Of a stretch of 64,000 bases of DNA, positions 17,786 to 63,240 are shown piece after piece. The notes under the pieces were generated by a model, which saw only the letters and a program-made list of their open reading frames with translations, did no database searches and was not told the DNA's origin. Location: the NCBI GenBank assembly GCA_001724265.1, contig MEDY01000069.1, forward strand, positions 62,001-126,000, given 5' to 3'. The first letter of the stretch is position 1; each line of letters starts with the position of its first letter. A program made the position numbers and the translations under genes. The DNA is from Rhizaria sp. SCN 62-66. Lineage: Eukaryota.

Positions 17786-20700
17786 ATGGACACAATCCTT
17801 ACACCGTCTGTACTGGACGCTGAATACGTCCTTCAATGTCTCTACACGCCTTACTCCGTTGTTCGTAAACGCCTCGTTGTCTTCAAGGCTATCCGCGAGG
17901 TATGTGATTTACTGCGACCGCACTCACTACATAATTTGCTCTGTTATTATGGCACAATCTCCCTTTTCCCACTCTCACCACGTCCCCAAATACCCATGTC
18001 CACTGAACCTTCCTTTCCTGTCCGCTCTCTCTCTCGCACTTAGCTCATCCGCATGGTTGACGCCGGCGCCCCCGTATACGTCTACGGCAGCGGTCCTCGC
18101 TCTGTGGCGCTGCCCGGCGGCGACATCGACATCGGCGTGCTCACCCCATTCGCGCCCCAGACCTTCCTCGCAGCCTTGCAGCACACCATGTACCTCACCG
18201 CCGCCGGACAAGAGGCCACCAAGGAGGCCGCAGCCGACCGCGCCTGTGCCGCTTCACCAGCCTTCTTGCGCGCACCCTTTTTGCCGCAGCAATAGCAGCA
18301 GGTGCAGGGGCCAGCAACTCCCAACCGGGCCCTGGCCCTGGCACACGCCGCCAAAGCTGCCCCGCACGCGTCATCTTCATCCTCTTCATCGTCCGGCTTG
18401 AGCGCAGCTGCGGCCGGTCAGAACGGGCCCGCGGTGACCGTGGATGCTGACGGGGCCGTGACCGTCGCTGTGCCGCTTCCGGGAGGATCTGCTGGCAGTG
18501 GCGCTGGCAAGGCTGACACTGGCAAGGCTGCCCACAGTCACCGCTGCCCGCGCTGTTCGGGCCGCATCAAGCCCCCTTCTATTTCCGGCCTTGGTGTCGG
18601 GACTTGCTGTGAGCCGGAGACTGGGGCTGTGGCGGCCGCGGCACGGACGCTGCTGGACGGACTGGGCGTGCTGCCCTGGGCCGCCCCGCCACGGTTCAAA
18701 ACGCTCTCGGCAGCGCTGACGACCGCGATCACCAACACCTACGCCTCCACCGCCGCTGGAGCCGCTACAGCCACCGCCACGCTTGCGGTCGCCGGCGCGA
18801 CGCCTGTGGAGGGCGCGGTACTGCAGCCTCGACAGGTGCAACAGCTGCTGATGACGAACGCGCTGCTGGCGTTGCGCCGGTACCGGCTGACCCCGCAGCA
18901 GCACAAACAGGCCGCCCTTGGTATCCAGCCTAGCAGCAACAACAACAACATTAGCAGCAGCAACAATGCCCACGCGAAGCCTGTGTTGAGCCCGGAGGTT
19001 GCTGCCGCCGTTGCGGCGCTGCTGTCGCATTTGCAGGCGGCACCGGCAGGTCAGTCGTGTCATGATGAGAACCCAACCTCTTCGCTGACTGCGCCGATTA
19101 CTGTTGTGGCCGCACCTGCTGTGCCTGCTGTTGGTGGCCGGAACACGTCCGGTGCGAAGCTTTGTGGCCACGACCACGAGACCAAGTGCGACGGACACTT
19201 GGACGCTGATGACGGCAAGTGCAGCTGCAACTGCGCATGCACTACTAGCGACGCGAGTCTTGTCGTTGGCAACAGGAAAGCTGCCAAGAAGGACCGCGCC
19301 GCCGCAGATGCGCGTACTAGCGATGTCAACAGCGCCGGCGACTACGACTGCACTTGCGTTGTCAGCATTGCAGGCGGCTTACCTTGCAGCACGGACGCCG
19401 TGAACCACCGCGATTTCATGCACTGTCCCGCAGTCAGCCACGTGACGGTGCTAACGTCGTCCGAGGTCAAGCTGCTCAAGTGCCAAGTCGACGGCATTCC
19501 CGTCGACGTGTCGGTCAACACAATCGCCGGCGTCAGCGCGCTGTGCTTTCTGACACAGATCGAGGAGTGCATTGACGGCGTCACGCATGGTCCCATTGCG
19601 ACGAATACGCCTAGCTTGGCAAGTCCAGTCAGTGGCACCACAGGCGCTAACATCGACGCTCCCGTGACCGGCAACAATGACGACTTCCCCGCACTGTCCG
19701 CGGCGCCGCCGCAGCAGGCTGAAACCGGTAAGGGCAAGGGCAAGGGCAAGAATAAGCAGAACAGCAGCGCCAGTGCCTCCGCCAGCCACATCGCTGACTC
19801 AAGCCCCCGTGAGTCCGTCCCAGACGCGGCCTCCACAGCGGCGACGGCGGCTGCCGCGGCGTCACCAGTGCTGCCGAGGCACCTGCTGAAGCGCTCAGTA
19901 ATGCTCGTCAAGGCCTGGGCGCTCAAGGAGGCGCGGCTACTCGCGTCTAGACATTACCTGCTGTCGTCGTACGCCGTCGAGACAATGGTGATCTTCACCA
20001 TCAATCACTTCTACGCCGACTTGTCATACTGTTCGATTCCCTCGGCCGCGTCAACAGCGCCAGCACCAGCGCAGTCATCAACAAAGACTCCCCTCGACCC
20101 GCGCATGCTGCCGCTGTCCCCACTGTCGGTGTTCATTCGTTTTGTCGACATTTTCGCTACGTTCGACTTCTCACGCTTTGCAGTCTCGCTCGCCGGTCCG
20201 ATCCCGCTCAAGCCCCTCCCGGCCGCTGCCTACGCCTCTGCTTCCGCCTCTGTCTCTGGCCCGTCCGCGACTGAGCTTGCGACTGGTGCCTCACCGCTGC
20301 CCGGGGTCAGTCTCCACTCTCTCCGGCCCTACGACTTGACCTCCACAGCGGCCGCAATCGCCGCTGTCACTGCCACTACTAATACTAGCTCCACGGTGCT
20401 GTTGCCGTCGCGTGACGCCAACGCGCTTGACACTGCGGCCTCGTCGGGCTCGCTCTGGCTTGGCGTGCCGTACCCCACATATCACTATCTTTCCAGTAAC
20501 AATATCAACGATGACACTCCACGCTCAAGCAGCGCCACGAACGCTGCTTCGCATGTCCCCGTTCTTGGCCGTGCCAGTAGTGACTCCGAGGCCGCGCTGC
20601 CCTTCACGGCCCGCGCCGCCGCCGCACGCGCCCGCGGCGGCCCTCTGCTGTCCCAGCGCCAGCTGCAGGAGCTCATGTTTGGCAACGGCGGCCACGAGGC

Positions 20701-22731: not shown

Positions 22732-22770
<39 letters not shown>

Positions 22771-23649: not shown

Positions 23650-23713
<64 letters not shown>

Positions 23714-29601: not shown

Positions 29602-31842
29602 ATGGTTGCGCCGTCCTTCACAGACTCGTCTAAGGACGTTGGCTGGTGGTGGAACCTCATTGTTCTTACTACCGTTATCATTGTGGTTCTTTTTGTCGGT
29701 GGCATGGTCTTCGAAAATGCGCCAGACTACGGTGTAAACCTCATGGAAGAGGACAGCTCCTCGTCTGTTCAGTCCATTGTCTTGCTCGATCATTCCAGCT
29801 ACGACGACGCCAAACGCGCTGCCCGCACGACGCCTAACGAGGATAACCAGCTGTACTCCCCTATTTCACACATGGAGCATGCGTAGCAGAGCGCCAAGCT
29901 GTTCAACTACACCTTCCCACCCTGGCCCGCGTCTGCTGCGCCTCACTCGCCGCCCGTCGCTGCGGCTCCGCAACAGCAACAGCAACAGCAACAGCAGGCG
30001 CAGCGCCCCCGTGCCCCCGCGGACTGCGCAGTTATTGTACAGCTTGCGTGCACCGAGCTCGGCCGTTATCTCACCGCGCAAGCGCCTCTCTGGTCTCTCG
30101 GCGTCGCCACCGCTCCTTTCGGCGTCATTCCGCCGCAGCACCGCGTCTTCTCCCCGAGCTTCGCAGTGGAGACCGTGCACTCGTACAGCATCGAGAACGT
30201 TGAGAACCGCAACGCATACTACCCATCGATCCCGCGCAACCCGGCGACGGACGCGCTGGTGGTCGCCAGGAGGCTCAGACTCACCGTGACGCTCGCCATC
30301 GCGCCGACTGCGACTGGCTTCGGATTCACGAAGAGTGGCAAGAGCACCAACAAACACAGTGGTGACGAGAGCAGCATTGAGAGGAACGGCGGTGACGCGA
30401 GTGCTGCTGTGGATCGCGATGCTGAGAACAGCACTGGCGACGACGGCAGCCAAGACGTTCGCACTGAGGCTCACCCAGATGCCGGCTCCGGCTCCGTCAG
30501 CGTGTCGTCCGTGCGCGCCGAGGCGATCGTGCAGTGCTCGTGGGACGGCGCCTGCCACGTGCACGGCGTGCTCTGGCGCTCGCCTTACCCGATTCCGCTG
30601 CGCCCGAGCCCGTCCCCGTTCTTCACGCCGCTTGCGCCCGCGCTGCCGGTCCCTGCGCACAGCTACGCACCGGACGCCCCCGTAGGGCTGGGCACGTTGC
30701 GCGTGATGAACGCGAACATCTGGAACTACAACCAGTGGCCCGCGCGGCGCCCGCTGCTCACGCAGGAGTTTTCACGCTGGCTGCCCGACGTGGTGCTGCT
30801 GCAGGAGGTCCGCGGGCGCCACACAGGCTTCCTCCGCTGGCGGTACCACCAGGCGCCGGCGCTGGCGGACGACTTCGCGCGCGTGGTCGGCGGGCCCGTG
30901 GGGTTCGTGTCCACGGCGACGGCGCAATTTGACGACGCGCACCCCGAGGAAGAGGGCGTGGCCATCCTCTCACGGCTGCCGATCCTCGACTACGGCTGGC
31001 TGGTGCTGAGTTCCAAGGGGTCGATCCACAGTGACGGGATGCCGCGGCGCGTGATCTGGGCCCACGTCGCGCTGCCCAGCGGCGACACGGTCATCGTTGC
31101 CACTGTGCACCTCACGCTCACGGCGCACGCGCGCGCGCGGCACTACGTGGAGATCGGGCAGTGGTGCGAAGACCTGCGCGCGGCCAAGGGCGGCGTGCCG
31201 CTGCTGCTGAGCGGTGACTTCAACGAGATCCTCTCGCGGCTTCCGGTGCACCCGTTCTTCAGTCGCGGTTTTGTCGACGCTGCGCAGCAGGTGTACGACG
31301 ACGAGGACGATGCGAGGGAAGCCGCTGCCTCCGCCGCTGCCGCTGCTGGTGACGGCGCTTTGGCCGGGACTGTGGGCGCGTCTGCTGAGTCGGAGTCGCT
31401 GACTGCGACCGCCAACACCAAGAGCGGCGACGGTGACAGCAACACCGCCGCGGCTGCTCCTGTGGCTGCCGTCGCTGGCTCTGACGCCGCCAAGGCCAAG
31501 AAGAAGCGCCGCCAGACCCCGTTCACGTTCCCCACCGACGCGCCGAGGAAGCTGATCGACCACATCTTCATCCACGGGCCCGCGCACGCCGTGGCGTACT
31601 CGATCGCGGGCGACAAGATGACCGGCACGATCTTCCCCTCGGACCACCTGTTTAACGTTGCGGACATTGACGTGGGCAAAGCTGAGGGGGTCAAGGAGGG
31701 CGGGTATGGAGCAGGGATCCCGCGGTGGCCTCGGCCGAGTGCCGCAACAGCAGCCGGTGGTGCCGGTGGTGGTCACGGTGCGGGGGCTAGCGAAGGAAAG
31801 GAGGAGGAGGAAGTCGGGGACTCGAAGCTCGATGAACTGTGA
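29602..31842 (+). CDS. Endonuclease/exonuclease/phosphatase (EEP) family protein with N-terminal membrane anchor, 746 aa if the in-frame TAG at 29884-29886 is decoded
   Basis: TM segment WWWNLIVLTTVIIVVLFVGGMVF. EEP motifs LRVMNANIW, PDVVLLQEV, GVAILSRLP, ATVHL, LSGDFNE, LIDHIF and PSDH. ORF-track pieces 29536-29886 and 30166-31842 share one frame with only the TAG between them. Ends KLDEL-TGA. Confidence 0.8.
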
Positions 31843-36146: not shown

Positions 36147-39100
36147 TTACGCGGCGACAATGGTGATCTTGACGGCGTGTCCGTCAAACGAGGCTGTCTC
36201 CTGTGCAAGCACCTTGCTCTTGTCGGGCATCTCCGCCGCGGGCGCGGGCACGATCGCGATGATGCTCTCGAACACCTCCTTGGCAAGCGAGATCACCTCG
36301 GGGATCGGGATGCCCGCCGCAGCCGCAGCGCCGTCGTCCTCGGGGTCCGCGGCGGCGGCGGCGGCGTCGGCGCCCGAGAGGACCTCGTAGAAGACGGCGA
36401 TCTTGTCGCTGGGGATGAGCCCAGCGGCCTTGCGCATCATCTGCACGCGCGAGGCGATGCCGCGTGCTGTGCCCTCGGCCTGCAGCCCGCGGTCGATGGT
36501 CGTGTCGAGCGCGGTCACGATGCCGTTCTCGGACACGACCTGGATGTCACCCGAGACGTCGGCGGCGACGACCGAGTAGTTCATCTCGGCCATGGTGAGC
36601 ACGACGTCGCACACGGCGAGCTCGCCCTTGGCCACGGCGGCCATGATCTCCTCCGCCGAGAGCGCAGCCATTGCCTCCGTGACAGCGCGAAGCTTGGGGC
36701 CGAGCTTCTTGCCAAGCGCGGCCTTGTTCGGGCCCAGCACGGGGCGCACGAACGCGGTCGGCGAGGTCTCGTAGCGCACCTCGTAGACCGACAGCAGGTC
36801 CTTGACGTAGGCCTCGAGGCTCTGGACGTCGGCGATGAACGTCGGGTCCGTCGAGTTGACAGTGTAGGTGCGCAGCGGCATCTGCAGCGAGATGACGCGC
36901 GTGTTGCGCGCCTGGCGGCCCATCTCAACGACCGTCTGCATGCGGCCCACGGCGCGGTCGACCTCGGGCGCGATCAGCGAGGTGATCGGGGCCGGGCGCA
37001 TCAGGTAGTGCACCGAATCGGCCTAAACAGGTTGACATTTGCAATTGAGAAAATAAATTACAAAACATGAACAAAAAAGAGGTATGAGACGCGAATGATC
37101 AACGCGTAATTCGCGAAAGAAAGTCATCTAAGATGAGAGAGATATCATGCAATGTTGTTTTGATTTGTGTCTTATTATGTGATTTTGTACGTACCTGGAC
37201 GGAGGCGGGGAGGATGAACTTGAGGTTCTGGTAGATGACCTCGACGAGGAAGGGCGTCAGCGACGACATGAGGCGGCACAGCGTGAAGAGCACCGTCACA
37301 AGCACCGACAGCGCAGTCTTGGTGTCGGCGGGGGTGTTGCCCTGGCCCTTGAGACGGCGGCGGTTGGCCTTGACGTACCAGTTGGTGAGGACCTCGATGA
37401 AGCGGACGAGCTGGGGCACGACGGCGTAGAGGTGGTACTTGGCCATCTCGACGTCGACCTTGCCGATCAGACCCTGTTGTTGAAAGAACACAAACAAAGA
37501 ACGAAAGACAATAAAGCAAAGTGAGTACAGTCATATAGTGGTGTTTAAGAATATAATCTACTCGATCAACAAAGGAAACACACTAACAAAAATAACATAA
37601 AATACAATAAAGGAGCGGAGAGAAAACCGTCGTTCGCATGGATGCGACCTACCTGGAGGGTGGAGAGGACCCACTTGTCCATGACGTTGTCGAGCACGAG
37701 GCCCTCGCCGGAGAGGTACATCTCATCCAGTGTGAACTTCTCGCCGCTCGCCACGACCTCAGCCGTGCTGTTGTAGCGGATGACGTTCTCAACGGCGAAG
37801 CGGAAGGCGTTCCACCAAGGGCGGATGACCTTGTTGCTGACCTGCATGACGTTCTCCTCGGTGAAAGCCACCTCCTCGGCGCGCACGGCGGGCGAGTTGA
37901 TGAGGCAAAGACGGAGCGAGTCGGAGCCGTACTTGGTGATCACCTCCATGGGGTCGGGGTAGTTCTTGAGGCGCTTGGACATCTTCTTCCCGTCGGGCGC
38001 GAGGATGATGCCGTTAACGACGACGTTCTGGAACGCAGGCTTGTCAAAGAGAGCCGTGGACAGGACCATGAGCGTGTAGAACCAGCCGCGGGTCTGGTCC
38101 AGGCCCTCGGCGATGAACTGGGCCGGGAACATGTCCTTGAACTCCTCCTTGTTCTCGAACGGGTAGTGCTGCTGCGCGTAGGGCATCGAACCCGACTCGA
38201 ACCAGCAGTCGAAGACGTCGGGGATGCGCGTCATCGCCGGGAACTCGGCGCCACGCGGGTCGGGGATAGTGATGTCGTCGACGAAGTGCTTGTGAATGTC
38301 GGTGATGCCCGTGCGGCCGGAGAGCTCCTCCAGCTCGGCCACGGACCCGATGGCCTTCATCTGCGTCCCGTCGGCCGAGACCCAGATCGGGATCGGCGTG
38401 CCCCAGAAGCGTGAGCGCGACACGGCCCAGTCGCGGGCCGTCGAGAGCCATGCGTAGAAGCGGCCAGAACCGACCGACTCGGGCACCCACGACGTCTGCG
38501 CGTGCGTGGCCAGGAGCCGCTCCTTGATCTTCTCCACGGCGACGAACCATGACGGCACGGCCTTGTAGATGAGGGGCGTGTCAGAGCGCCAGCAGAAGGG
38601 GTACGAGTGATTGTACTGGTCCTGCTTGATCACGCGGCCGTTCTTCTTGAGCAGGCGGATAATGTCCAGGTCAGCGTCCTTGACGTAGCGGCCCGGGAAG
38701 TCGAGCACCTCGGCGGTGAAGCGGCCGGAGTCGTCGACGGGGCAGAGCAGGTCAGCGCCCTTGGCAGTGATGCCGCCCTGCAGGCACACGCGGTTATCGT
38801 CCTCACCGAACGCAGGCGCGCAGTGGACAATGCCGGTACCGGAGTCGTCCGTGACGTAGCCGTCGGCGACGATGCGGAAGCCGGTGGCCTCGTTCTCGGC
38901 CTTGAAGTAGTCGAAGAGCGGCTCGTAGGTGAGCCCGACCAGCTCGGAGCCCTTCATCTCGGCGATGATCTCGTACGCGTCCGTCTTAAGCGGCATGTCG
39001 GCCAGGTACTGCGCTTTGATTGCCGCAATCTGCGCCGCCGCCTCGGGGCCCGGGAGCGCGGTGTTTGCCTGCACGGCCTCGATGGCGCGCACGCGGGCGC

Positions 39101-39953
39101 CGGTGGCCTTCTTGTCGGGCCACACCTGCTCCATGCGCGACTTGGCGAGGATGTAGACGGCGTTGTTGTTCTTGAGGTCGCGCACCTTGACGTAAGTGAA
39201 GTCGCCGTTGACGCAGAGCGCGAGGTTGGACGGCAGCGTCCAGGGGGTCGTGGTCCACGCCAGCGCGGCGGCGCCGTCGGCGTCGCCCTTGATCGGGAAC
39301 GACACCACCACGGTCGGGTCGAGCACCATGCGGTAGTTGAGGTTAGACTCGAAGTTGGACAAGGGGGTCATAAGCGCCGTGGAGTAGGGCATGACCTTGT
39401 ATCCGCGATAGACGAGGCCCTTGTCGAAGATGGTCTTGAGGACCCACCAGACAGACTCCATGTACTTAAGGTCCATGGTCTTGTACGAGTTGTCGAAGTC
39501 GATCCAGCGGCCCATGCGGGTCACCGTCGCCTTCCACTCGGAGGTGTAGCGCTGGACAATGGCGCGGCACTCCTCGTTGTACTTGGCGATGCCGATGGCC
39601 ATGACGTCGTCCTTGGTCTTGATGTCAAGCGCCTTGTCGATCTCGTGCTCGACGGGCAGACCGTGGCAGTCCCAGCCGAAGCGGCGCGGGACGTGGAAGC
39701 CGGACGAGTACGCGTGGCGGGTCACGACGTCCTTGATGGTCATGGCAAGGATGTGGCCGTAGTGGGGGAGACCGGTGGCGAACGGAGGACCATCGTAGAA
39801 GGTGAAGACGGGGCGACCCTCGGAGAGCTTGTTGGAGGTCTCGAAGGCCTTGATCTTGTCCCAGTACGCAAGGACCTCCTCCTCCATCGTCGACGCCTGG
39901 GTGCGCGACTCGGGGACGTTGAGTTCCGTCGGGGAAACGAGACTCGAAGACAT
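36147..39953 (-). CDS. IARS1: Isoleucine--tRNA ligase, cytoplasmic, 1151 aa, 3 exons (39953-37653, 37473-37195, 37022-36147)
   Basis: Motifs FYDGPPFATGLPHYGH, GWDCHGLPVE, WTTTPWTLPSN, GTGIVHCAPAFGEDD, DWAVSRSRFWGTPIP, EGLDQTRGWFY and KMSKR. Two in-frame GT-AG introns. TAA stop. Confidence 0.97.
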
Positions 39954-40579
39954 CGCAGTCTGAAGATATTGTGTACGGGCGCAGAGAAGAGAGCAGAACA
40001 GAATCGGCGAAAGGCGTGTGTGGTGAGTCATGTTTGGAAGTTCTGAGAGGAGGTGAAAGGCCTATCATCGTGATAGTAGCACGTTAACAGAGTATTAAAG
40101 TTCGTATTATATCACTGAACGTTAAATAAAAGTGTGTCCGGTGCGATTTAGATAGCGAGCAGCGTATCCCGAGCACGCAAGACGTTGGCAGCCACCATGT
40201 CGATCGGCTAACAGAAACGCGCGTTTGTAGTGCACAACACGCTACATAAGAACACAGATTAGCAAAACCGACAGCAACAACACCTGTTTAATCAGATGTT
40301 TGAGTGCTACCCTTCACCGTGGCTCATATGCAGGCAGAAATGACTTGCGAATGAAGTGGACAAAGAGTCGTGGTCGTCGAATGCGGACCTCAACAAAACG
40401 AAACTTTTTTTTGCGAACCGCAACTTGCCAAGAACGCAATGGTTGAATATCAGAGCTTGATGGTATATTGTAAAGTGTATTTGAATGTATTTGGAATTAT
40501 TAATGTGAATAAATAGTTCGTTTATATGTAACCTTGGTATGTAGATGTGCATACTGGGCCAATACATGTCATATTCTGA

Positions 40580-43003
40580 TCACTTGTTCTTGTCCGCCAC
40601 AAGCGCTTTCATGACAAGCTCCATGTGCTTCGGCAAAGGCGCCGTCACAGCCATCACCCCATCCCAGTCGCCGCCGCCCGCAGTCACCGCAGCGCCGGCC
40701 CGCGCAACCGCGGCCTTGACCCGCGCGCGGTCGGCCTCGGTGGCGACGCCCTCGAAGGCGGCAGTGAAGAGCGGGTGTTGGAACGCCATGCTGCGGCACG
40801 TCAAGTGCAACGTCGGTGGAGTGGCAAGCGCACGCGCTGACGCGCCTCGCGGGACAACCGTTGCCACTGCTGTAAGCGCGGAATCGGGCAGAATGGGGCC
40901 GCGCAGCAAGCGCGCGTTGCAAGTCCTGTCATTGCTACTGAGACGCGTGCTGTCGTTGTTGTTCGGCTGCTGTTGACTCTGTGTTGTGAGTGGAGTGTAG
41001 CCCTCCGTGATCAAGTCTTCGCCCAGCAGCGGCGAAGACAGCACGGCCCCACAGTGACGGCGTAGCTGGTGTTTGCGGCCCGTCACGGGCGACATCGCCA
41101 ACAGCGACAGCACAGGCGCTGACCGAGCTGGGTCAGCGCTGTCACTACTGGCTGCGGGAACGGTCAGAGTGGTTAGCTCGGTGAAAAGGCTGAGCGCTGT
41201 CAGGTGTTCTACAGCAGCCCCGTTCGTGCCACTCTTGCCACCGCGAGAGGTGAGGGCCTTAGTCTTGCTCTTGCTCGTGCTGTTGTGTGTGCTATGGAAA
41301 GCGTGCGCTGAGCCGGTGTCGGTCGTCGCATATGTTTCAATAGTGGTAACACTGTGGAATGCCGTCGCGTGTGTGCTTCTATTCATGGTCTGAGAACCGT
41401 GCTTAAGGGGCGATTGCGCGATTGACGCCTGAACCATGCGACTCAGCACCATAACATCATCATCAGCAGCATGATTGGCTGTCGTAGTTGCACGATTCAA
41501 AGTCACGCCAGACACCTTGTTCAACGCTGACAGAGAAGGCAGCGGTGCTGAAAGCGCCCAGTATAGCTTCTTAACTTGATACACGCCGTTATTGTCTCCA
41601 TCTTCGTCATTCATATGCCTGTCATTGCGATTAGCGTTAACATTTGTGTGGTGTTTGTTAGTCGTGGATTTCGTCGTAGCGTCAACGGCAGCCTTAGTCT
41701 TGGCTGCAAACTGGTCAGTTAGCGCCTTGGCCGCGAGCCGCGTCTTCGCCACAACCAATACACCTGATGTCGCTTTGTCAAGCCGGTGGACCAAACGGGG
41801 GCGCTCAAAGCAAGAATGCGCCCACAGGGGCAGTCCGGTGGCGGGGTGAGTCTCGGGCGCAGACTGTAGCTTTGACTCAGACTGCGACTCCAATGACTGG
41901 CGTGGTTGAGAGAGCATTGCAGGTGAGTGCATGGACACAGTGTGCAACGCAGCCAAATACGTGTCGATGTGGTTATTGCTGTTGTTATTCGAAGTATCCG
42001 CCAAGTGACCATGAGCGGGGTCCTGCTGGCTTAGAGACGCAGCAGTCCCCGCGTGCACCGCCATCCCCGGCGGTTTATCGAGCACTAGCACGTGCTCATC
42101 CTAATACAGCACCCACGGCAGCAGACGGCGCGTGAGGCCGACAGCGCGGGCGTATGGCACCGACTCGGCCACCTCGTAGCCTAGCGCCGCCGAGTCGCCG
42201 CCACTCGGGGCGGCAGCGCCAGGGGCGAGTGCAGGAGTCAGCGGGCTCGGGTGGCTAGACGAGCCACTGCTACTGTTCTGACTGCCAGGCGTAATTGTTG
42301 CAGTGTTCAAATCCGTCTGCGAGAGCAAGTTCGCGACTGTCGTCGCAAGCGCCGGTGCCGCAGCCGCTGCTGCAGTTGTCAGTGCCAGAGAGTTCGTGCC
42401 GGTATGGGGCGAGGGACTGTTAGGAGCGGTTGGAGAGAATGTGTCCGACAAAAGCACCTTCGCCACGAACAATGGCAGCACAACAACGTCGCCGTGAGCG
42501 AGCTTCGACGCGATCTTGACTTTGGAACCCAAGCCAGCACGTCCTGCGCTTGCGCTCTTGTTGCCGTTCTCAGGATATGCGGCAGCAGTCGTGATGAGTG
42601 AGACGTCGGCAAGTGTGAGTGCAGATTGCGGTGCCAACGGCATCATCTGTGGGTGTGACAGCGACAGTGACGTTGCGTCATGAAGCGGGATGGCGTCATG
42701 ATCATTGTTGCTGCTACTAACGGAGATACTCGTTCCAGCAACCGTGAGAAGTGGAATCGAGCTCACAGTCACTGAGCCACCTGGGGTGGCAACAGTTACT
42801 AACTCAAGTGCGCTCGTGGTATAACTAGGTACCATCCGCGATGCGTTAATGGGTGTAACAGCTGCAGGAATGAGTGTCACTTCATTGCGTTCGATTAGCT
42901 TCCAGATCGTGGGCATGTTAAGCGACGGCACTGCGGCCTTCAGGAAGGCATCGGCGCGCAGGGCGTGGTTGCGCGAAGATACGCGCAGGCCAAGTCGGTA
43001 CAT
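40580..43003 (-). CDS. RluA/RluC-family pseudouridine synthase with S4-like N-terminal domain, about 807 aa; in-frame TAG at 42101-42103
   Basis: S4-like LRADAFLKAAVPSLNMPTIWKLIERNEV...KVKIASKLAHGDVVVLP. Motif I VLY*DEHVLVLDKPPGMAVH, catalytic LVHRLDKATSGVLVVAK, then KKLYWAL, PVTGRKHQLRRH and LHLTCRSMAFQHP. The start codon is uncertain; 43003 is the first in-frame ATG. TGA stop. Confidence 0.87.
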
Positions 43004-43279
43004 CCACCGACGCGTAATAGGACCAATAACAGCCGATGTTGCGACGGTACTGAAGCTAGTTGCGTTTATTGGGTGTAGCGCATGCGATGCAACGGATCGC
43101 AGCACTCACGCGGGAAGAGCGAACAGGAAAAGATCCATATGTGAGCCAAACACCAACCTTGCCAAATATTATTAACGTTTAATAACCAACTTTGAACTGC
43201 GTATATTGTTACAATTCTCAACTTTTATACAACGGACTCTACACTCACATACACTTCATTCCATTCAGCGCCCTCTCAG

Positions 43280-44510: not shown

Positions 44511-45661
44511 TTACTGCATCGCGAAGTAGTGCTTGGCGGCGTAGTGGCCCGTGACGCCGTGCTCGATCTGGCGCTCGACGTCGAGCAGCAGCGCGGAGGC
44601 GCCGATGCGGAACAGGTCGGGCCTGTGAATTGAAAGAAAGCAAAAGAAACAGTGATCAGGGAAGAATCATAGTGAGGGTACAGCGTCAAAAAAATTATGA
44701 AGATACAAGACTAACAGAAAAAGGTATGCAATGCACCAATATACATAAATACTCAATAAGTCGTGATAAATAATGCAAATGCAACGTACTTGGTCCACTC
44801 CTCGCCGAGCTCCTCGAGCATGAGCGAGAGGAACGAGAGGGCCTTCTTAGCGGTGCTCACGCCGCCGGCGGGCTTGAAGCCGACCTTGTAGCCGGTGCGG
44901 TCGTGGTAGTCGCGGATGGCGCGCACCATGGTGAGCGCGACGGGCAGCGTGGCGTTGACGCGCTCCTTGCCGGTTGAGGTCTTGATGAAGTCGGCGCCGG
45001 CCATCATGCACACGAGCGAGGCTTTGTAGATGTCGCGGTAGCTGGGGAGCTCACCCGTGGCAAGAATAGCCTTGAGGTGAGCCTCGCCGCACGCCTCGCG
45101 CATGGCCTTGACCTCCTCGTAGCACTCCTTCCACTTGTGGTTGATCACGAGCTCACGCGCGAGAACGATGTCGATCTCCTTGGCGCCGTTCTTGACGGCG
45201 TAGCGGATCTCCTCCAGGCGCGTCGAGAGCGGGGTCTGGCCCGCGGGGAAGCCCGTGGCGACGGAGGCGACCGGAATGCCCGTGCCCTTGAGCGCGGCCA
45301 CGGCATCGGCGACGCGGGAGGGGTAGACGCAGACGGCACCCGTGGTGATGCCCTTGTCCTCGACGTCGAGGCTCTTGACGAAGTCGGGGCGCAGAGGGGT
45401 CTTGGCCTTGGCGCAGAGGCGCTTGACGTTGCCGGGGGTGTCGTCGCCGGCGAGCGTGGTGAGGTCGATCAGGGTGATGACGCGAAGAAGCCAGGCGAGC
45501 TGGTGCTCCTTCTTGACGGTGCGGCGGGCCTCGAGGGACGCGGCGCGGCGCTCGATGGCGGACTTGTTGCACTGGACGCTGGCAACCCACTCCATGTCGA
45601 GCTCGATGCCCGCGTTGCGCACATGGCCCTCGCAGTGAACGGCGTCGGCGTCGGTGGACAT
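44511..45661 (-). CDS. DERA: Deoxyribose-phosphate aldolase, 327 aa, 2 exons (45661-44790, 44622-44511)
   Basis: Motifs IDLTTLAGDDTPGNV, AVCVYP, VATGFPAGQ, HLKAILATGEL, ADFIKTSTGK and VGFKPAGGV. The second exon encodes PDLFRIGASALL. Intron GTACGT...CAG. TAA stop. Confidence 0.96.
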
Positions 45662-46521: not shown

Positions 46522-49490
46522 ATGTCTGGTACGTTACCTCGCTCCCTTCACTGCTCTGCACCACCCTCAGCAACGCTAGATCACCTTGAACGCGATCAAC
46601 ACGCTTTTGCACACATAGACACTGACAGATAGATTGTTCCCCGCCTAACTGTACTATCTTTTGCATCTGTTTAGACACGCCCGAGGATGCGACGAGGGAC
46701 GTGACCAACACGGTCGCGTTCGCCTTCCTGGACGAGATGCTCTCCAAGGGCAAGCTCAGCCAGGAAACCGTCGACCTCTGCAAGGCAAACTACCGCAAAC
46801 TCCACGAGTCCGTCGTGACGTGCTTTGCCAACGAAAAGGCACTCATGGAGAAAGCCATGGAGCTGTCGACCGTGCTCGAAGAGGAGCGTAGCAAGATCGA
46901 GAGCAAGATTGGTTCGACCCACGACATGCACACCGACATCGAGCAGCTGCAGCGCGAAGCCGATGACGTTAACGCCGTCGTGCAGACCTTCCAGAACGAG
47001 GTCTCCGTGTGCCGCTTCGAGCTGGAGGAGCTGCAGGCGACGCGGCGTGAGAACGAGGTGCGCCGCGAGCAAAACGAAGTCAAGCAGCTGGCCGAGCTGC
47101 AGCCCATCAAAGAGCGGCTCACACAGCGGCTTGCCGAGCTAGAGGCTGACCTGCTGAAACAGAAGGAGGCCAAGGAGCGCGAGGACGAGAATACACAGGC
47201 GTACCTCACGCGCATCGCGGTGCAGACGGCCAAGATCACCGAAAACGAGCGGCTCAAGCTGAGCAAGCGCGGCGAGTACACTAAGGTCATGGGCGAGCCC
47301 GAGCGCATCCGGCAGCAGTGCGCGTCGCTCGAGATTGCGCAGAAGAAGCTCCAGACAGACGTGCGCGAGGCGACTGAGGCGGAGCGCCGCGCGGAGACCG
47401 ACTACCAGGCCGCCGAGCAGGCACGCATGGAGAAGGAGGCGCAATGCGACAAGGCCGTCGCAGCCAGCTCGCAGTTGCGCGCGACCGTGTTCAAGCTGCA
47501 GATGCACGCGGACGAGCTGCAGAGCAAAAAGCTGACCGAGCGCGAGCGCGCGGAGCGTGCCAAGGACAAGACGACTTTGTTGGAGGAAGAGCTGAAGCAG
47601 CTGCACGAGATGGGCAAGAAACACTTCGAGCAGATGTCCGAGTACCAGCGGCAGTACGAGCGCGCCAAGAAGGAGTACGAACGCCAGCGCCGCAAGCGCG
47701 ACTCGCTGCAAGCGCTGGTGCCGCCGCTCAAGGCGCAGCACGAGAGCATGATGCGACTCTGGAACGAGCTCGAGCGCGAGCTCAACGACAAGAAGAAGAT
47801 TCTCACCGAGATCAAGCTCGACGAAGAGCTGTTCACTGCACAGGTGCTTAACAAGGAGGACCTGGAGCGCGAGACCAAGGCGCTGCTGCAGGCCGTGTTG
47901 GCCGAGCGCCGCGATGTCGAGGCCAAGGTCGCGCAGGCCGACGCGCAGGAGAAGGCGCTGCTCAGCGACGTCGGCAACCTCTCGGCGCAGCGCGAGCGCA
48001 TGGCGCGCGAGGCGTCGCTGGCGATGGAGCAGTACGTCGAGGCGACCAAGGAGCTTAAGGCCAAGAACATGCTGCTCATGTCGCTCGACAAGCAGACGCT
48101 CGAGACGTATCAGCGCCTCAAGGTCACCTCAGTGCAGTACGAAAAAGTCAAGACGTCGCGCAATCGGTACCAGAGCCTATTGCAGGCCGCGGTGCAGACC
48201 GTAGCAGAGCTTAATGAGAAGATCAAGCTCCTACAGAGCGAGAGCGACACACTGCGTCAGGAAAGTGGCAGTATGAACCGCACTCTCTTGGACGAGGCGC
48301 GCACTCGCAGTAACCTCGTTGCCGGCCGCGACGCCGCGCGCATTGACCACAACAAGCTGAGCTCGATCCTGTCCGACGTGCAGGAGCAAGAGCGGCAGCA
48401 CGAGACGGAGATCGTCAAGCTCAACTCGATCGTGAACCAGACCGAGATCAAGATGCTCGAGCTGCGCCGCGACTACGCCGCTGCCGTGGACAACCGCAAC
48501 TTGACCGGCATCCAGCTCATCGACCGCAACGACGAGCTGTGTATCCTGTACGAGAAGTCAAACGTGCAGCAGGCCGTGCTGGGCAAAGGCGACGCCGAGC
48601 TGCGCCACAAGGACGAGCAGATCCGCGCTCTCAAGCTCGAGATTGCAGAACTGCGCCGCCGCGTCGAAAACGCGCGCTGCAGGCTCCCGTCGCTGCAGAT
48701 GTACGCGGCGTGCACGGCGACGCTGCAGCGCCTCGAGGACCAGCTGCGGCAGGAGCGCGAAATCACCAATGCGCTCACGGTCAAGCTGGAAGAGCCCGCG
48801 GAGACTGCGGGCGCGGCGGGTGGCGAAGGCTCGCGCTGCCGCTTGCTCAAGGGTTCGGACCCGTCGCCTGAGGTGCTCAACGCGCAGATCGCGATCCTGG
48901 GCGACCGGCTCAACGCGAAGAAAGAGCAGCTGCTGGAGCGCGAGCTCGTACTGGACGAGGTCACTTCCCTCAGCGACAAGCTCAAAGTGCAGGCCGCCGA
49001 GACGCGCGGCTCGACACTGGACCTCGCGAAGCGCATCAACGATTACCAGGCGCGCATTCGCACCATGACGCGCAAGATCATGGCCGTGATCTCCGAGCTG
49101 TCGATGTACCAGGCGACGGCGATGAAGCTCGAGCAGCAGCGCGCCGAGGCCGCCGCCGTGCTCGCCACGGCCAAGGAGCGTGCGGCCCAGGGCGTGCCGC
49201 CAACGGACGACGCAGAGTACGAGTGGTACCGCATCGAGCGCGACCGCGTGCGCCGCCAGGAGGCGCTCATGGAGCGTATGGCGAACGAGAAGACGATGAT
49301 GGCCAACGCGCAGCGCGCGGCGCAGGGCATCGCGGTCAAGACCACTGCCGAGGCGCGGCCTAACCACTACTTGCCCGAGGAGCTGGCGCTGCCCAAGCCC
49401 TACGGCGCGCTGGCGCCGTTCAAGCCGCAGCAGCAGGGCGCGACTATCCGCCACGTGCGCAAGCCAGAGCCACGCGAGCTGCAGCTCTAA
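46522..49490 (+). CDS. CCDC146: Coiled-coil domain-containing protein 146-like (flagellar), 940 aa, 2 exons (46522-46528, 46675-49490)
   Basis: Long coiled coil with RNLTGIQLIDRNDELCILYEK, RKIMAVISELSMYQA and TTAEARPNHYLP..LALPKPYGALAPFKP. A 7-nt first coding exon ATGTCTG|GTACGT supplies the missing ATG. TAA stop. Confidence 0.88.
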
Positions 49491-53165: not shown

Positions 53166-54246
53166 TTAGTTATAGTTGGCGGCGCACTTGTCAAATAGCG
53201 CGGACGCGGCGGCCTCCTTGGCAAACCAATCAGCTCCGGGGTGCGCCTGCTTAAGCTCCTCCAACACCTTGCTCAGCACGTCGTCCGCGGCGGGCGTGAC
53301 GGAGCCGCGGTGGAACATGCACACCGCCGAGTTGACCAGAGTGTCCACGGTCGCCGGGTGCCCGTTGGCGCGCGCGAGCTCGCGGGCCTGACGCAAGTAC
53401 TGGAAACCCTCGCGCGCCTTCTGCTGCAGCAGTTGCGTAACGGCAAGCAGCGAGAGCACGACGGGGGACGGCCCGGCCTTCTCGGCGACTTCGGTGAGCG
53501 TGTTGAAGGCCTCGGTGAGGGACGAGGAAGAGTGCTTGGCAATGAGCACCCAGGACAGGGCGAGCTGAGACAGTGCGTCATCGTCGTCGACGTCGCACAT
53601 CTGGCGCGCAACCTTCTCCGCGAGGTCCACGCGCTGCATCGCGAGCAAGATCTGCACCTGCGTCGCAAGCCTAGAGAGTCAAGAAGGCAAAGCAGGGGAC
53701 GTTACAGTATGAGCAAGTTGAAAAATTGATTGTACAGCGGAGAACGAGAGTTGTGATAAGACAACATCAAAGAAAATAGTCCTGGGAAAAATAAAAACAG
53801 TAATAACACGAGGTTTTAGTCTCATAAACGTACTTCTCGAGGTTGTCGGCGGCGTTAGTGGAGACGATCTGAAGGGCTTCCTTGAGGTTGCCATCGAGGA
53901 TGTAGATGCTCGCGGCCTGCAGCTGGACCGTAACATCGGCAGCAAAGTCGGCGTCCTTAAGCCAGGCCTCGATCGTGTCGAGCACGGTCTGGCGGTGCTG
54001 CGGCGTGCCGCGGTGGATGCGGTACATGACGTAGAGCTTGATGCTCTGCAGTGCGATGGGGGAGGTGGCCGTCACCACAGCGTCCAGCTGCGCGGGTGAG
54101 AGCTCGGCCAGCGCGCGGTGGCGAAAGACGTCAACAAAGGGAACGGAGGGGGGAATGTTGGCCGCCTCGGAGATGCAGGTCTGGTACTGGCCGAGGTAGA
54201 AGGCGTTGCGCACAGTACGCAAGTCATCGATCTGGTTGTACGACAT
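53166..54246 (-). CDS. COPE: Coatomer subunit epsilon, 305 aa, 2 exons (54246-53834, 53670-53166)
   Basis: DDLRTVRNAFYLGQYQTCISEA and QILLAMQRVDLAEKVARQMCDVDDDDALSQLALSWV; C-terminal HP..WFAKEAAASALFD. Intron GTACGT...TAG. TAA stop. Confidence 0.93.
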
Positions 54247-57930: not shown

Positions 57931-58944
57931 TCACGCCTTGTTAACAGCAGTAGTAGGAGCGGGCTTGAACTTGAGCGAGATGTCGAGCGCAGTCACCGAG
58001 TGCGTCAGCTGGCCGGAGCTGACAAAGTCCACGTTAGTCTTGGCAATCTCGCCCACAGTCTCGAGCATCACGTTGCCGGACACCTCGGTCTCCATCTCGC
58101 GGCCCTTGCTCACGGTCCCTGCGGAAATTTTAGCTGCCTGGTCCTTGAGCACGAGCTCCTGCGCCTGCGCAATGAGCGACGTGTCGATGCCAGTGGTCTT
58201 GCCGCTGCTGCCGTCCTTGACGAGCTTGGTCATGTTGTCGAACATGATACGCGTGACACCCAGGTGCTGCACGGCGAGCGCCTCAGTCACCTCTGCCAGA
58301 GAGCCCGTCTCGACCTCGATGGCGATGTTGCGCTCACGCAGCACGGGGTCCGCCTGCAGGAACGCATGGGTGTTCTCCACGGCCTGCGTGATGCCGCCCG
58401 CGGCCTCGATGTGGTTGTCCTTGATCATGACCATGTCGTACAGCCCGACGCGGTGGTTGCACCCGCCGCCGAGACGCACAGCGAGCTTATCAATCATGCG
58501 CAGACCGGGGACCGTCTTGCGCGTGTCGAGGATGCGGGTGCGCGAACCAGCGGCTGCGATGGCGTCCACGTACGCGCGCGTCAGCGTCGCAATGCCCGAC
58601 ATGCGCTGCATGAAGTTGAGCGCGGTCCGCTCGGCGATGAGGATGCCGCGCGAGAGGCCGACGGCGGTGCCGATGATGTCGCCCATGGCCACGCGGTCGC
58701 CGTCGGACTTGCTCCAGGTCACCACGATCGACGGGTCAACGCGGCGGAAAACCTCGGAAACGACGGCAAGACCAGCAACGACGCCGGAGGCCTTGGCAAC
58801 GAAGTAGGCGTCCGAGTGTGCGTCGGCAGGGATGGTGGCGTTGGCCGAGACATCGCCAGTCGCCACATCCTCGGCCAGAGCGGTCTCGATCGCGCGAGTG
58901 ATCTGCTCAGACTCGCTGACAAGGGGGAAAGTAAGCTCAGACAT
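57931..58944 (-). CDS. QPRT: Nicotinate-nucleotide pyrophosphorylase (quinolinate phosphoribosyltransferase), 337 aa
   Basis: Motifs ALAEDVATGDVS, AERTALNFMQRMSGIAT, ILDTRKTVPGLR, NHRVGLYDMVMIKDNHI, IEVE, EVSGNV and LTHSVTALDISL. Confidence 0.96.
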   Translation of the reverse strand: MSELTFPLVSESEQITRAIETALAEDVATGDVSANATIPADAHSDAYFVAKASGVVAGLAVVSEVFRRVDPSIVVTWSKSDGDRVAMGDIIGTAVGLSRGILIAERTALNFMQRMSGIATLTRAYVDAIAAAGSRTRILDTRKTVPGLRMIDKLAVRLGGGCNHRVGLYDMVMIKDNHIEAAGGITQAVENTHAFLQADPVLRERNIAIEVETGSLAEVTEALAVQHLGVTRIMFDNMTKLVKDGSSGKTTGIDTSLIAQAQELVLKDQAAKISAGTVSKGREMETEVSGNVMLETVGEIAKTNVDFVSSGQLTHSVTALDISLKFKPAPTTAVNKA

Positions 58945-59316
58945 TGTGCTTGGTAGTCTGGGTGGCGTTAGAGTGTGAGCGAAAGTGAGGGTATGGGGCC
59001 GTGAGAAGGGGGGTCCAGCAAGGGGCGATTCGAGCGACATGCATTTGAGAGGGAAAGAAAAGTGAATTGATTGCGTGAATGGATCCGATACTTGAGCGCC
59101 CTGGTTGATATGATATACATTTGAGTGTTTGAACTATTCTCCCAATTTTGCACGAGCTCATCTAGCGGAAGATGTTGCTGAAATGCCTCCTTTGTTCAAC
59201 GTGGGCTTCCTCCCAAGATTCACGCTGCCTTTCCGTTTGTGGTCGCATCAAATGTCCCTCGTCCCACTCACCTCACACTCTCATTTCGCGTCCACTTGCT
59301 TCCACAACCCGTAAAA

Positions 59317-59800
59317 ATGATTCGCCTCCTTGTCGTCATTCTCGCCATACTCCTCAGTACGTCCCCAACGCAATATACATCTTGATCTTCCGTTTACCAA
59401 CGTAGCACCGATCCCTCGCTCATATCTCCGTTTCTCTCTCTGTTCCGCGTTCCGCATCTCAACCCCACCAGCCGTCTCCGCCGAGCAGATGAACTGTGTC
59501 TACGACCCTGTCAAGGCCAAGCAGCAGGTCCAGAACATCTGGACCAAGCTCCAGGCCATGAACACGCGCATGTCCACACTCACGGGCGACGCCCTCACCC
59601 GCGAGTCCATCACCGCGGCCCAGACCGAGTACCTCACCTTCCCCATTACCTACCAGATCAACTGGGAGATCATCGACGTCAAGCCCGAGGACGCGCAAAA
59701 GGTCGCCGACTCGCTGCGCGACAAGGTCCGCGAGGCCGGTGCCACGCTCGGCTCCAACAAGCACATTCCGCGCCTCTTCAACGCCGAAGAAGAGGATTAA
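59317..59800 (+). CDS. Small secreted hypothetical protein, 122 aa, 2 exons (59317-59356, 59472-59800)
   Basis: Splicing GTACGT...CAG yields the signal peptide MIRLLVVILAILLTVSA followed by EQMNCVYDP. Very strong C/G-ending codon bias. TAA stop. Confidence 0.75.
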
Positions 59801-60223
59801 GCAAGCTCTGAGCAGACCATTGTACACGCGCTGCTGGGCACATGGTGTTTTTTCGTGTACTGTCAATGGATATGGCGTACTCCTCTGCACAGCTATAATA
59901 AAACTATAATTCCTAAACATGACATGTAGAAACTCAAAAGCTTGTACAAATGTGAAGTAACAGGCGGAAGCAAACATAAGTTGGAGCGAGAAACTAAAGA
60001 TACTTGGCTTGTATGATGTCATCAATACACAAAGCTTTGAAAAGAAATAAAACGAAAATAACAAACTGTCTAATTTCACAAACATATCTACTCACAAAGA
60101 ACCAACACAAACTCGCCCTGATCACAAAGCAGCGCTCACCCGGTGTATTCGCCTTCTGTCATGTGCGTGCGCGTGAAGTCAATGTTTGTCACTGTGCACG
60201 CGCGGTATGATATAACAGTGCGC

Positions 60224-61918
60224 TTACTCGTTCTGGCCCTCGGGGCGCATGGCGGGGAAGAGCAGGACCTCCTTGATCGAGTCGGAGTTGGTCAGGAACA
60301 TGGTCATGCGGTCAATGCCCATACCCCAGCCGCCAGTCGGGGGCAGGCCGAACTCAAGTGCCTGGATGAAGCCCTCGTCAAGGCCGGGGACCTCGTCGTC
60401 GCCGGCGGCCTTAGCCTTCATCTGCTCGGCGAAACGCTCGCGCTGAACGTGGGGGTTGTTAAGCTCGGTGTAGGCGTTGCAGACCTCCTTCTCGAGCACA
60501 AAGAGCTCGAAGCGCTCAGTGAGGCCGGGGATCGAGCGGTGCTGCTTCGCCAGGGGCGACATGATCTCGGGGTGATCCATGATGAAGCAGGGGTTGGAGC
60601 ACTGCACCTCGAGGTACTCGCCGACGAGCTTGTCGAGCAGGCGCGCAGTCGTGCGGGGTGCCTCGCACTTGACGTTGTGCTGCTTGCACAGGTTGTCGAG
60701 GAACGCGTTGGCCTCGTCCGACTCAAGAGGGAACGGGATCTTGACGTTAAGCGCCTCCTCGAGACCGGAGATCATGGAGATGCGCTTGAACGGCGGGGTG
60801 AAGTCGACCTCGACGGGGGTCTCCTTGCCGTAGGGCGTGTACTGGATCTTGTAGGTGCCGTGGATCGACTTGACCATGCCCGACACCATGCGCTCAGTCG
60901 CCTCGATGAGGTCATGGTAGTCGGCGTACGCCCAGTAGAACTAACACGTCGTGAACTCAGGGTTGTGCGTCATGTCGATGCCCTCGTTGCGGAACTGGCG
61001 GCCGATCTCGTAGACGCGGTCGAGCCCGCCAACAACGAGCTTCTTGTGGTAGAGCTCGGGGGCGATGCGCATGAACATGTCCTGCTTGAGCGAGTTGTGG
61101 TGCGTCGTGAAGGGCTTCGCGGTCGCGCCGCCGACCTCGACGGCCATCATGGGCGTCTCGACCTCGAGGAAGCCGCGCTCATCGAGGAAGCGGCGGATGT
61201 AGTTGATGATCTTAGAGCGGACGGCGAAGATCTCACGCGTCTTGGGGTTGAGCATGAGGTCGAGGTAGCGCTGGCGGAAGCGGACCTCCTGATCCTTGAG
61301 GCCGCGGAACTTGTCCGGCATCATGTGCAGGCAAGGGGTGAGCAGCACCATCTCGCGGGGGTAGATGGACAGCTCGCCCTTGCGGGTACGGCCGACGTAG
61401 CCGCGGACGCCGACAATGTCGCCGCGGTGGAGCACGGCATGAATGTCCCAGTTCTTCTCGGCCGAGCCCTCCTCGGCGACGACCTGGAGCGTCTCGCCGT
61501 CGCCCTGGACCTGGTAGAAGATTAGCTTCTTGCCCGCAGCGCGCTGCAGGTGAATGCGGCCCGCGACGGAGACCTCGATGGTGGTGTCGACGGCACCGGC
61601 CTCGATGGCGTCGAACTGCACGCGGAACTGCGGGATCGACATGGTGACGTTGAACTTGTGCGGGTACACGGCGTAGCCAGAAGCCTTGGAGTACTCCTCG
61701 AGCTGCTTCACGCGGGACGCGAAGTAGTCGGCGGCGTTGCCCTCGGAGACGACGGTGGTGACGGCCTTCTCGGGGGCAGCGGCGGCGCGCGTGGCGGCCT
61801 TCTCGGCGCGCGCGGCGGCCTGAGCCTCCTGCTTCTGCAGGCGCTTAAGGGCGTTCTTGGAGAGCGCCTGGCCATCGCCCTCGGGGGCAGGCACGGGGGT
61901 AGGGTCCTTATCAGCCAT
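60224..61918 (-). CDS. KARS1: Lysine--tRNA ligase (class II, eukaryotic cytosolic type), 564 aa; in-frame TAG at 60941-60943 (codon 326)
   Basis: Motifs [91 protein letters not shown] and [15 protein letters not shown]. The two ORF-track fragments are one frame. TAA stop. Confidence 0.95.
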
Positions 61919-63240
61919 GGTGTGCGAAACCTAATGCCGAGCAAGGTATAGTTGAGTCGGGAAGAACGGCAGGGTTGCGGGGAGAATAGAAGCGACAGCA
62001 TGAGTGAAAAATGGGAGGAAATAAAGTGTAGAAATGAAACGAGTGTGTCTTGCAAAAATAAAATGTTATATCTCGTCATAACGGTACCGGGGGCCACACA
62101 ATGACTCAGTTGCGAACGGCCCCACAAGGAGCCGAACTGAGACCGAGACCGCGACCGAAAAGAAGGCCGCCTGGAGGGTTCGCAAAAATCAACCCAATCT
62201 CGAAAAGCGGAAAATCATGCATATCTAAGTCATCATATCGCTATTCTAGTTTTGTTTTCCGGGATAGCGTATTAAACATCTGAGCAAGTTAGGACTCTTG
62301 GTTTTTTCATGTGGTAGGCTGCATATGTCATATCCATCTTTGGTGTTCGTCAGGAACGGTTTCGATGCTTACTTGACTTTAGAGCCTCTGTGAGGAGTGT
62401 GTAATCAAGCCGAATGGCGTAATTCTTACGGCATCGCCTGTATCAGTGAGTGTTCTCTTGTCAGACGCGGCATCGAATGCTCAGGTGAAGGTTGTGCGCT
62501 GCTGTGCTTCTTGGCGCTCAAGGTGGTTGCTCAGTTCACAAGATGCGCCAATCTTCATGTGACCAACCCGAATATCAATTTAAAAAAACTTAGATGGCGC
62601 ATGTTTATACAGAATCACGTCGACTTGACATCGGCAAACTTGATGTTTGGCTTGAACATGGCACGATCATCTCTGATGCAGCGTGTGACGTCGTTTCCCA
62701 GTCTCAAACGTGATTGTGGTGGCTGCAAGAAATCATGACATTTGTCAAGCATAATAGGATTTAACCGCATTCAACCAAACGTGTAGTATGTATTCAAGTG
62801 ACATCAGTAATAAAACGTTTGATATTTATATTCATGCCTTGTTCCTAGCTGACTATGCAAGATAATATAGTCTCCACCACAAACGCGTTTTTAAGTGGTG
62901 ACGTTCTCAGTCGACGCGACCCTTTTGGCACAGCGAAGGGTGAGGTTTGAACAGAACTTTTAATTTCAAGAAAACACAGTATCTAATCGCTTAATACGCA
63001 TTAAACTGCTGCAAACAGCTTTTCCAAGTGCGTTTTGGTATAGTTCCTTTTTGTTATTACGATTACAGTGCGATCAATGTTCTCTTCTTGAGCATTTACG
63101 TAGCACCACTTCGCTCACCCTCAGGCGGAAGCTCACCCTCTTTCGCCCAACTCGAACATTCCTTTAGCTCTCGCTTTCTAGCCTTAGTCTTTAGCATCGC
63201 CCTGCCGTTCTTGCTAATCTACCGCTCCCGCATTAAGACA

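Follow-up and report, generated by a model that had tools for sequence, protein, structure and literature searches.

An in-frame TAG at an invariant glutamate of lysyl-tRNA synthetase suggests that UAG may be a rare sense codon in a wastewater flagellate

Results

An in-frame TAG occupies the invariant glutamate position of LysRS

In a 64-kb stretch of metagenomic DNA filed as Rhizaria sp. SCN 62-66 (contig MEDY01000069.1, positions 62,001 to 126,000; hereafter the window, numbered from its first letter), the gene for a cytosolic-type class II lysyl-tRNA synthetase (LysRS; 60224..61918, minus strand) is a single exon with one in-frame TAG (60941..60943, minus strand), which takes the place of an invariant Glu in the motif 2 region. 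We think it probable that UAG is a rare sense codon here, most likely read as Glu, with UAA and UGA kept as terminators, on a nuclear contig of a wastewater flagellate; the evidence suggests a genome-wide reassignment of UAG but does not prove it. The first-pass annotation of this DNA, made from the sequence alone, had reported the same TAG and favored Glu as its reading. Its presence at the conserved Glu is confirmed here, and its interpretation is supported.

Apart from this codon, the open reading frame (ORF) is intact and runs for 563 codons from an ATG at 61916-61918 to a TAA stop at 60224-60226. The minus strand of 60926-60967 reads CAC AAC CCT GAG TTC ACG ACG TGT TAG TTC TAC TGG GCG TAC, and one frame holds 329 stop-free codons before the TAG and 238 after it. 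The GC content at third codon positions (GC3) is 0.91 on both sides of the TAG, and the codon-usage score per codon is 0.53 and 0.54 on the two sides. With X in place of the TAG, the product has 568 residues, and in this form it served as the query for domain and structure comparisons. Pfam places tRNA-synt_2 (PF00152, 6.7e-92) at residues 213-561 and an OB-fold anticodon-binding domain (PF01336, 3.3e-11) at residues 120-196, N-terminal to the class II core. Residues 18-567 match residues 13-579 of human LysRS (6chd) in a single alignment (E = 1.7e-207), which sets X opposite Glu and is gapless around the site. Because X aligns opposite Glu without a nearby gap, no intron fits at the TAG, and an intron was rejected as an explanation; the earlier statement that both flanks are colinear with the LysRS motif and leave no room for an intron therefore holds. 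The motif 2 region ('FRNEG..THNPEFT..E.Y') and motif 3 ('G.G.G.DR') are both present, with the TAG in the Glu column, and the C-terminus ('RPEGQNE') coincides with the ends of relatives. Domain order, colinearity, and motifs 2 and 3 are common to human KARS1 (6chd, 3bju) and the window LysRS, which differs in these features only by the TAG at the Glu. With an OB domain, a catalytic core, and colinearity over its full length, the protein is best assigned to class II (IIb). Termination at the TAG would, as had been pointed out, cost 238 codons, including motif 3 ('GWGMGIDR').

Relatives speak strongly for Glu at this site. Invariant columns of a LysRS alignment (A1) include R314, N315, E316, H322-T328, F331, Y332, G534, G536, G538, D540, and R541, and all 18 other sequences of this alignment have E in the TAG column. 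Likewise, E occupies the TAG position in 124 of the 125 LysRS homologues that we fetched, the last one (P0008) lying outside the motif pattern used, and Q, K, and L are absent among the 124. The five nearest metagenome loci have either GAG (L001, L002, and L003) or GAA (L004 and L005) at the site; in L001, the nearest relative, LysRS is 80% identical in protein and the codon is GAG. These counts agree with the earlier preference for Glu over Gln or Leu. This Glu, like the Tyr of the motif, presumably contacts the lysine substrate.

Independent DNA and RNA assemblies carry the same TAG

The window is a metagenome contig of bioreactor or wastewater origin, and at least part of a 9-kb stretch of it that we queried occurs in 13 listed runs from 8 studies. 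Contigs from four runs were compared with the window; these are contigs rather than raw reads, and they may partly derive from common samples. A DNA contig from another study (X3 record 8) spans 60560-61769, including the TAG, with 0 differences, and a contig from a complementary DNA (cDNA) library (X5 record 23) spans 60058-61881, also including the TAG and also with 0 differences. In other contigs of the cDNA library, 44621 is followed directly by 44789, and 53669 by 53833; the segments skipped in this way are GT..AG on the minus strand and fit the ORF structure. Since its contigs hold two GT..AG splice joints, X5 is genuine RNA, and in this library, with its spliced joints, the UAG is retained in mature mRNA and has not been edited away. 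Hence, the LysRS TAG is no assembly error: independent assemblies of DNA and of RNA carry TAG unchanged, and not GAG.

Exact look-ups found two LysRS fragments on 6 contigs each, one of 325 residues that ends at the TAG and one of 221 residues after it. An intact copy of the gene, which would have spoken for an ordinary nonsense mutation, did not come to light: by exact look-up, a collection of 15 billion proteins contains this LysRS with neither E nor Q at the site, and no full-length LysRS match above 81% identity turned up. A second, closely related strain is represented over 60440-61244 in two further runs, X4 and X7; it differs mostly by third-position changes (G>A on the plus strand). 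One X4 contig of this second strain appears to end at 60944, adjoining the LysRS TAG.

The part of LysRS after the TAG shows no decay

We compared the window LysRS with that of L001 over 325 codons before the TAG and 238 codons after it. The part before the TAG has 77.5% amino-acid identity, with a different codon at 27.4% of the identical residues; the part after the TAG has 84.9% identity, with a different codon at 27.7% of the identical residues. Because identity to L001 is higher after the TAG and synonymous divergence is the same, the distal part has, by this comparison, been under at least equal purifying selection, although a very recent nonsense mutation would escape such a test. The claim that the gene shows no decay and keeps its codon bias was thus sustained.

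Three further genes carry one in-frame TAG each, one firmly and two probably

A second TAG, which we regard as firm, lies in an RluA/RluC-family pseudouridine synthase ORF (40580..43105, minus strand; Pfam PseudoU_synth_2, PF00849, 1.2e-17). This ORF has its first ATG at 43003, a TGA stop at 40580-40582, long low-complexity inserts, one in-frame TAG, and three conserved blocks that align to E. coli RluC. The TAG (42101..42103, minus strand) stands at the X of 'PWVLY-X-DEHVLVLDKPPG' and aligns gaplessly to the E of 'iLYEDDHILVLNKPSG' in E. coli RluC; an intron at this TAG was rejected on account of the gapless alignment. The position is a variable polar one: among 122 homologues with the motif, it is E in 41, K in 34, Q in 14, R in 11, M in 9, and another residue in 13 (148 matches in all, the 26 without the motif being left out; the homologues are distant). 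The upstream fragment of the protein, ending at the TAG, is found on 5 contigs. No listed contig covers 42101, which we counted neither way as evidence.

A probable third TAG (18293..18295, plus strand) interrupts a run of Gln (QQ-X-QQ) in a gene of 3,673 codons (18053-29071, plus strand), a single ORF very rich in low-complexity sequence of Ala, Ser, and Gln. The coding signature of this gene (GC3 0.83) begins at 18068, upstream of the TAG, and about 190 codons follow the TAG without any ATG. Before the TAG there is a weak match to the 'GS..DID' of NTP_transf_2 (Pfam E 0.0076, and 0.044 in a repeat), and the part after it resembles MTPAP-like_central/PAP_assoc clusters (score 0.94), a resemblance that we treat as a lead only. 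A search of the PDB with the first 800 residues gave no meaningful match. The N-terminus could be a Cid1/TUTase-like nucleotidyltransferase split by an insert of about 460 residues.

A probable fourth TAG (29884..29886, plus strand) lies in the N-terminal part of an endonuclease/exonuclease/phosphatase-family gene (29602-31842), upstream of its Pfam Exo_endo_phos match (4.8e-14). Both GC3 and the codon score are positive across this TAG, after which about 270 codons pass before the next in-frame ATG. A homologue search with the N-terminal part returned the window's own protein only; because homologues that cover the site are absent, the residue at 29884 is not inferable. Many other TAG-interrupted frames of high GC3 that arose in a first scan were dropped as antisense frames of real genes.

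The codon before the TAG is a rare, A/T-ending one at three of the four sites: TGT (60944-60946), TAT (42104-42106), and CAA (18290-18292). In LysRS, where the AT content at third positions is 0.09, TGT makes up one of seven Cys codons, and L001 has TGC-GAG where the window has TGT-TAG. Such neighboring codons may influence how the TAG is decoded, or the pattern may be due to chance. Public gene calls are split or truncated at the TAGs of LysRS (P0400/P0401) and the pseudouridine synthase (P0397/P0250), and those for the endonuclease/exonuclease/phosphatase-family gene (P0249/P0404) start downstream of 29884.

TAG is found inside genes and not at their ends

About 22 genes could be delineated in the window once antisense frames were removed, which gives 16,726 sense codons. 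Within these codons there are 4 TAG, 0 TAA, and 0 TGA. The 20 terminators that could be read comprise 14 TGA, 6 TAA, and 0 TAG; four apparent TGA ends were excluded from this count as intronic, two in the isoleucyl-tRNA synthetase gene and two shown by the RNA joints. For TAG versus the other stops, internal versus terminal, Fisher's exact test gives p = 9e-5 with all four sites and p = 0.004 with the two firm ones. The probability of finding no TAG among 20 terminators is 0.12, 0.012, or 0.0008 if TAG makes up 10, 20, or 30% of stops, respectively.

TAA ends LysRS and 5 other genes of the window. Because the ends of LysRS, quinolinate phosphoribosyltransferase (QPRTase), and a small ORF match those in the syntenic relative L001, TAA is, on the strength of this comparison, evidently a real stop. 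The four genes of L001 end in TAA, TAA, TGA, and TGA, and none in TAG. One ORF in the L003/L002 relative (72% identity, 52% GC, weak codon bias) does end in TAG.

The window belongs to a GC-rich, intron-poor eukaryote

The best explanation of the window is an uncultured, GC-rich, intron-poor flagellated eukaryote of wastewater bioreactors. Its coding sequence is GC-rich, with GC3 up to 0.9. Introns are few, AT-rich, and bounded by GT..AG; three are about 165 nucleotides (nt) long, and the first intron of the cytosolic isoleucyl-tRNA synthetase (IleRS) gene is about 90-100 nt. This gene (36147-40061, minus strand) comprises three ORFs with the domains tRNA-synt_1, Anticodon_1, and DUF5915, separated by AT-rich GT..AG introns, and the TGAs that end the first two ORFs are intronic; one of its introns, of about 170 nt, starts with 'gtacgtac' near 37193 and ends with 'tgtttag' near 37024. 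In a DeoC-family aldolase gene, an intron of 167 nt (44622-44788, minus strand) is skipped in contigs of the RNA sets X5 and X4, and in a coatomer epsilon gene, whose two exons match Pfam positions 3-134 and 134-289, an intron of 163 nt (53670-53832, minus strand) is skipped in an X5 contig. Because the window has genes for a Hemingway/CFAP97 domain protein (10789-14265, minus strand; 3.7e-14) and a CFAP58 coiled-coil protein (46626-49490, plus strand; 9.9e-15), the organism probably builds a flagellum.

The gene order LysRS, small conserved ORF ('VYDP..VW(T)KLQA..'), and QPRTase is common to the window (57931-61930) and to L001 (1-4843). The nearest named LysRS is that of the sainouroid Guttulinopsis vulgaris, at 65% identity, and in a tree of 33 LysRS sequences the window clade is sister (92/81) to the Guttulinopsis clade, inside a clade supported at 100/99. 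IleRS points to no consistent taxon, with Cyanophora, Pharyngomonas, Chromulina, Pygsuia, Mataza, and plants all at about 57-61%. Kinship with Sainouroidea, drawn from one gene and few named taxa, is a lead.

Discussion

UAG is probably a sense codon in this organism

Our preferred reading is that LysRS mRNA would be translated through the TAG, and that the result would be an ordinary enzyme of full length that has Glu where the substrate binds. The UAG would be read by a tRNA with anticodon CUA that does not read UAA, as may be deduced from accounts of other UAG-only codes (PMC5304391 and PMC11687900, in the portions available to us). Such a tRNA(CUA) could plausibly be a one-base anticodon derivative of tRNA-Glu(CUC), charged by GluRS, and an eRF1 with weakened recognition of UAG would act alongside it. 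If UAG is decoded as sense, then Glu is likely, with well over an even chance, to be the residue inserted.

Several points weigh against this reading. The evidence comes from 64 kb and from 2 firm and 2 probable in-frame TAGs, and the assignment to Glu depends on one strongly informative site, that of LysRS. The pseudouridine synthase site is variable, and the QQ_QQ run around 18293 hints at Gln. Relatives have ordinary Glu codons at the LysRS site, and among the five nearest loci none with an in-frame TAG was seen. GAG and TAG differ by one base, so either a nonsense mutation or an error would likewise fall on a Glu codon, and, given the codon bias of this DNA, most random nonsense mutations would yield TAG. 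The absence of TAG from 20 terminators is weak evidence if TAG is merely rare as a stop (P = 0.12 at 10%), and the ends of several gene models without homologues are uncertain. No tRNA genes or Rfam matches were found in the 64-kb window, and the eRF1 gene lies outside it. Furthermore, a contig of polyadenylated RNA (X7 record 29) spans the LysRS site with 3 differences at unlisted places, and the 5-6 contigs that hold the split fragments may partly share samples.

UAG might instead be a sense codon for a different amino acid, most plausibly Gln or Lys, with LysRS tolerating the substitution or impaired by it. We consider this unlikely, though it is the most credible of the alternatives. The gene with the 18293 TAG, which stands in 'PQQ-X-QQVQ', has 324 Gln codons (274 CAG and 50 CAA) against 50 Glu codons (47 GAG and 3 GAA), and the pseudouridine synthase site accepts both K and Q (34 and 14 of the 122 homologues). 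Gln is also the commonest reassignment of UAG in eukaryotes, and the known UAG-only codes use Gln or Leu, as far as the accessible text of PMC5304391 and PMC11687900 goes. The LysRS site speaks against this explanation, with Q, K, or L in none of the 124 homologues, and so does the pseudouridine synthase site, where E is the plurality residue and L occurs in 2 of the 122. Alternatively, the code might be standard or ambiguous, with UAG still ending some genes but read through efficiently at these places by virtue of context or a partial suppressor tRNA, which we regard as improbable. The codon patterns around the TAGs resemble known context effects on readthrough: three of the four follow a rare A/T-ending codon (TGT, TAT, or CAA) and two precede CAG; the sample of terminators is also small. 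Yet a stop at a catalytic residue of an essential enzyme demands near-complete decoding with the correct amino acid, and near-cognate readthrough of UAG is known to insert Gln, Tyr, or Lys rather than Glu, which we count against this possibility together with the lack of TAG among the 20 terminators.

A true nonsense mutation, by which LysRS would be a null allele or a young pseudogene backed by another allele or by a paralogue outside the window, seems to us about as improbable as readthrough, or slightly more so. GAG becomes TAG by one base change, the nearest relative has GAG, and a paralogue may lie beyond the 64-kb window; contig assemblies drop minor alleles, so that a minor allele at the TAG could have escaped us. 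However, the TAG is on 6 contigs, in the DNA of another study, and in RNA, and an intact allele is not on record. The part of LysRS after the TAG is equally or more constrained, and an unrelated conserved gene 19 kb away is interrupted in the same manner, as two more probably are. Every one of these interruptions is a TAG, and none is a frameshift. A sequencing or assembly artefact, or editing of the RNA from TAG to GAG, is very improbable and largely refuted: apart from the origin of the window as a metagenome contig, nothing was found in its favor, whereas the independent contigs from DNA and from RNA cross the site without a difference and the gene calls are split on 6 contigs. The decoding of UAG as sense, probably as Glu, remains the most likely explanation.

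Comparison with known variant codes

One code that changes UAG alone is that of the rhizarian exLh (Sainouroidea), described in PMC5304391, to whose accessible portions the following statements are limited. In this nuclear code, UAG is Leu, and termination is left to UAA and UGA alone (56 and 15 cases). The code was recognized from UAG codons that stood in frame at hyperconserved positions, and its authors predicted a tRNA(CUA). In exLh and, by our proposed reading, in the window, only UAG is reassigned. The two differ in that exLh decodes UAG as Leu, whereas the LysRS site of the window is an invariant Glu. At conserved positions, as the exLh code would have them filled, we found next to no Leu: 0 L against 124 E in LysRS, and 2 L of 122 in the pseudouridine synthase. 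UAG is also much rarer in the window (4 in about 16,700 codons), and the window is GC-rich genomic DNA, whereas exLh is known from a transcriptome. In the text available to us, UAG is likewise Leu in a phyllopharyngean ciliate lineage.

UAG as Gln with UAA as a stop is described for the fornicate Iotanema spirale, where UAG makes up about 8% of Gln codons (PMC5304391), and for the ciliates Hartmannula sinica and Trochilia petrani (PMC11687900), in the parts of both papers that were accessible. In these organisms, as proposed for the window, UAG is decoupled from UAA and serves as an extra codon of low frequency. However, Gln misfits the invariant Glu of the window LysRS, and the organisms, a fornicate and ciliates, are different ones.

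Glu has captured UAG elsewhere, according to the passages we could consult, but together with a change of UAA. In Oligohymenophorea sp. PL0344, UAG is Glu, UAA is Lys, and UGA is the stop, with matching suppressor tRNA genes (PMC10553269); in the peritrich code (NCBI table 30), UAR is Glu (PMC11687900); and in the Blastocrithidia code (table 31), UAR is Glu and UGA is also reassigned (PMC11687900; PMC12153298). As far as these sources go, UAG as Glu is thus otherwise paired with UAA as Glu (peritrichs and Blastocrithidia) or as Lys (PL0344). PL0344 resembles the proposed code in reading UAG as glutamic acid and differs in having UAA as sense, whereas in the window TAA ends 6 genes and is never in frame; in our judgement, a ciliate genome would also look different from this long, GC-rich contig with its many genes. 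Peritrichs and Blastocrithidia show that a stop codon can be captured by Glu, so that GluRS and tRNA-Glu can adapt to a YUA anticodon, and they differ from the window in the reassignment of UAA, and in Blastocrithidia also of UGA, neither of which is seen there: in-frame UAA, expected under both codes, was found 0 times in the 16,726 codons. In the main texts of the open full-text literature, we found no report of UAG as Glu with UAA and UGA both as stops. We give slightly better than even credence to the view that the window represents such an undescribed nuclear code, in which UAG is glutamate and both UAA and UGA are kept as terminators.

Implications

Nuclear code changes are rare, and those that part UAG from UAA are rarer. 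Because public gene calls are split at the TAGs, databases contain truncated proteins for this organism. Several studies have wastewater or bioreactor data sets in which the organism recurs, and thus material for a genome-wide test of the code exists. If it is true that UAG is Glu beside two kept stops in a GC-rich non-ciliate, this would be an additional, independent case, in which one could test how adaptation proceeds in tRNA-Glu, GluRS, and eRF1, and whether lineages that seldom end genes with UAG are predisposed to codon capture. If, moreover, the LysRS-based kinship with the Guttulinopsis clade holds, UAG would have been captured a second time, and differently, near exLh, and the lineage may be predisposed to freeing UAG.

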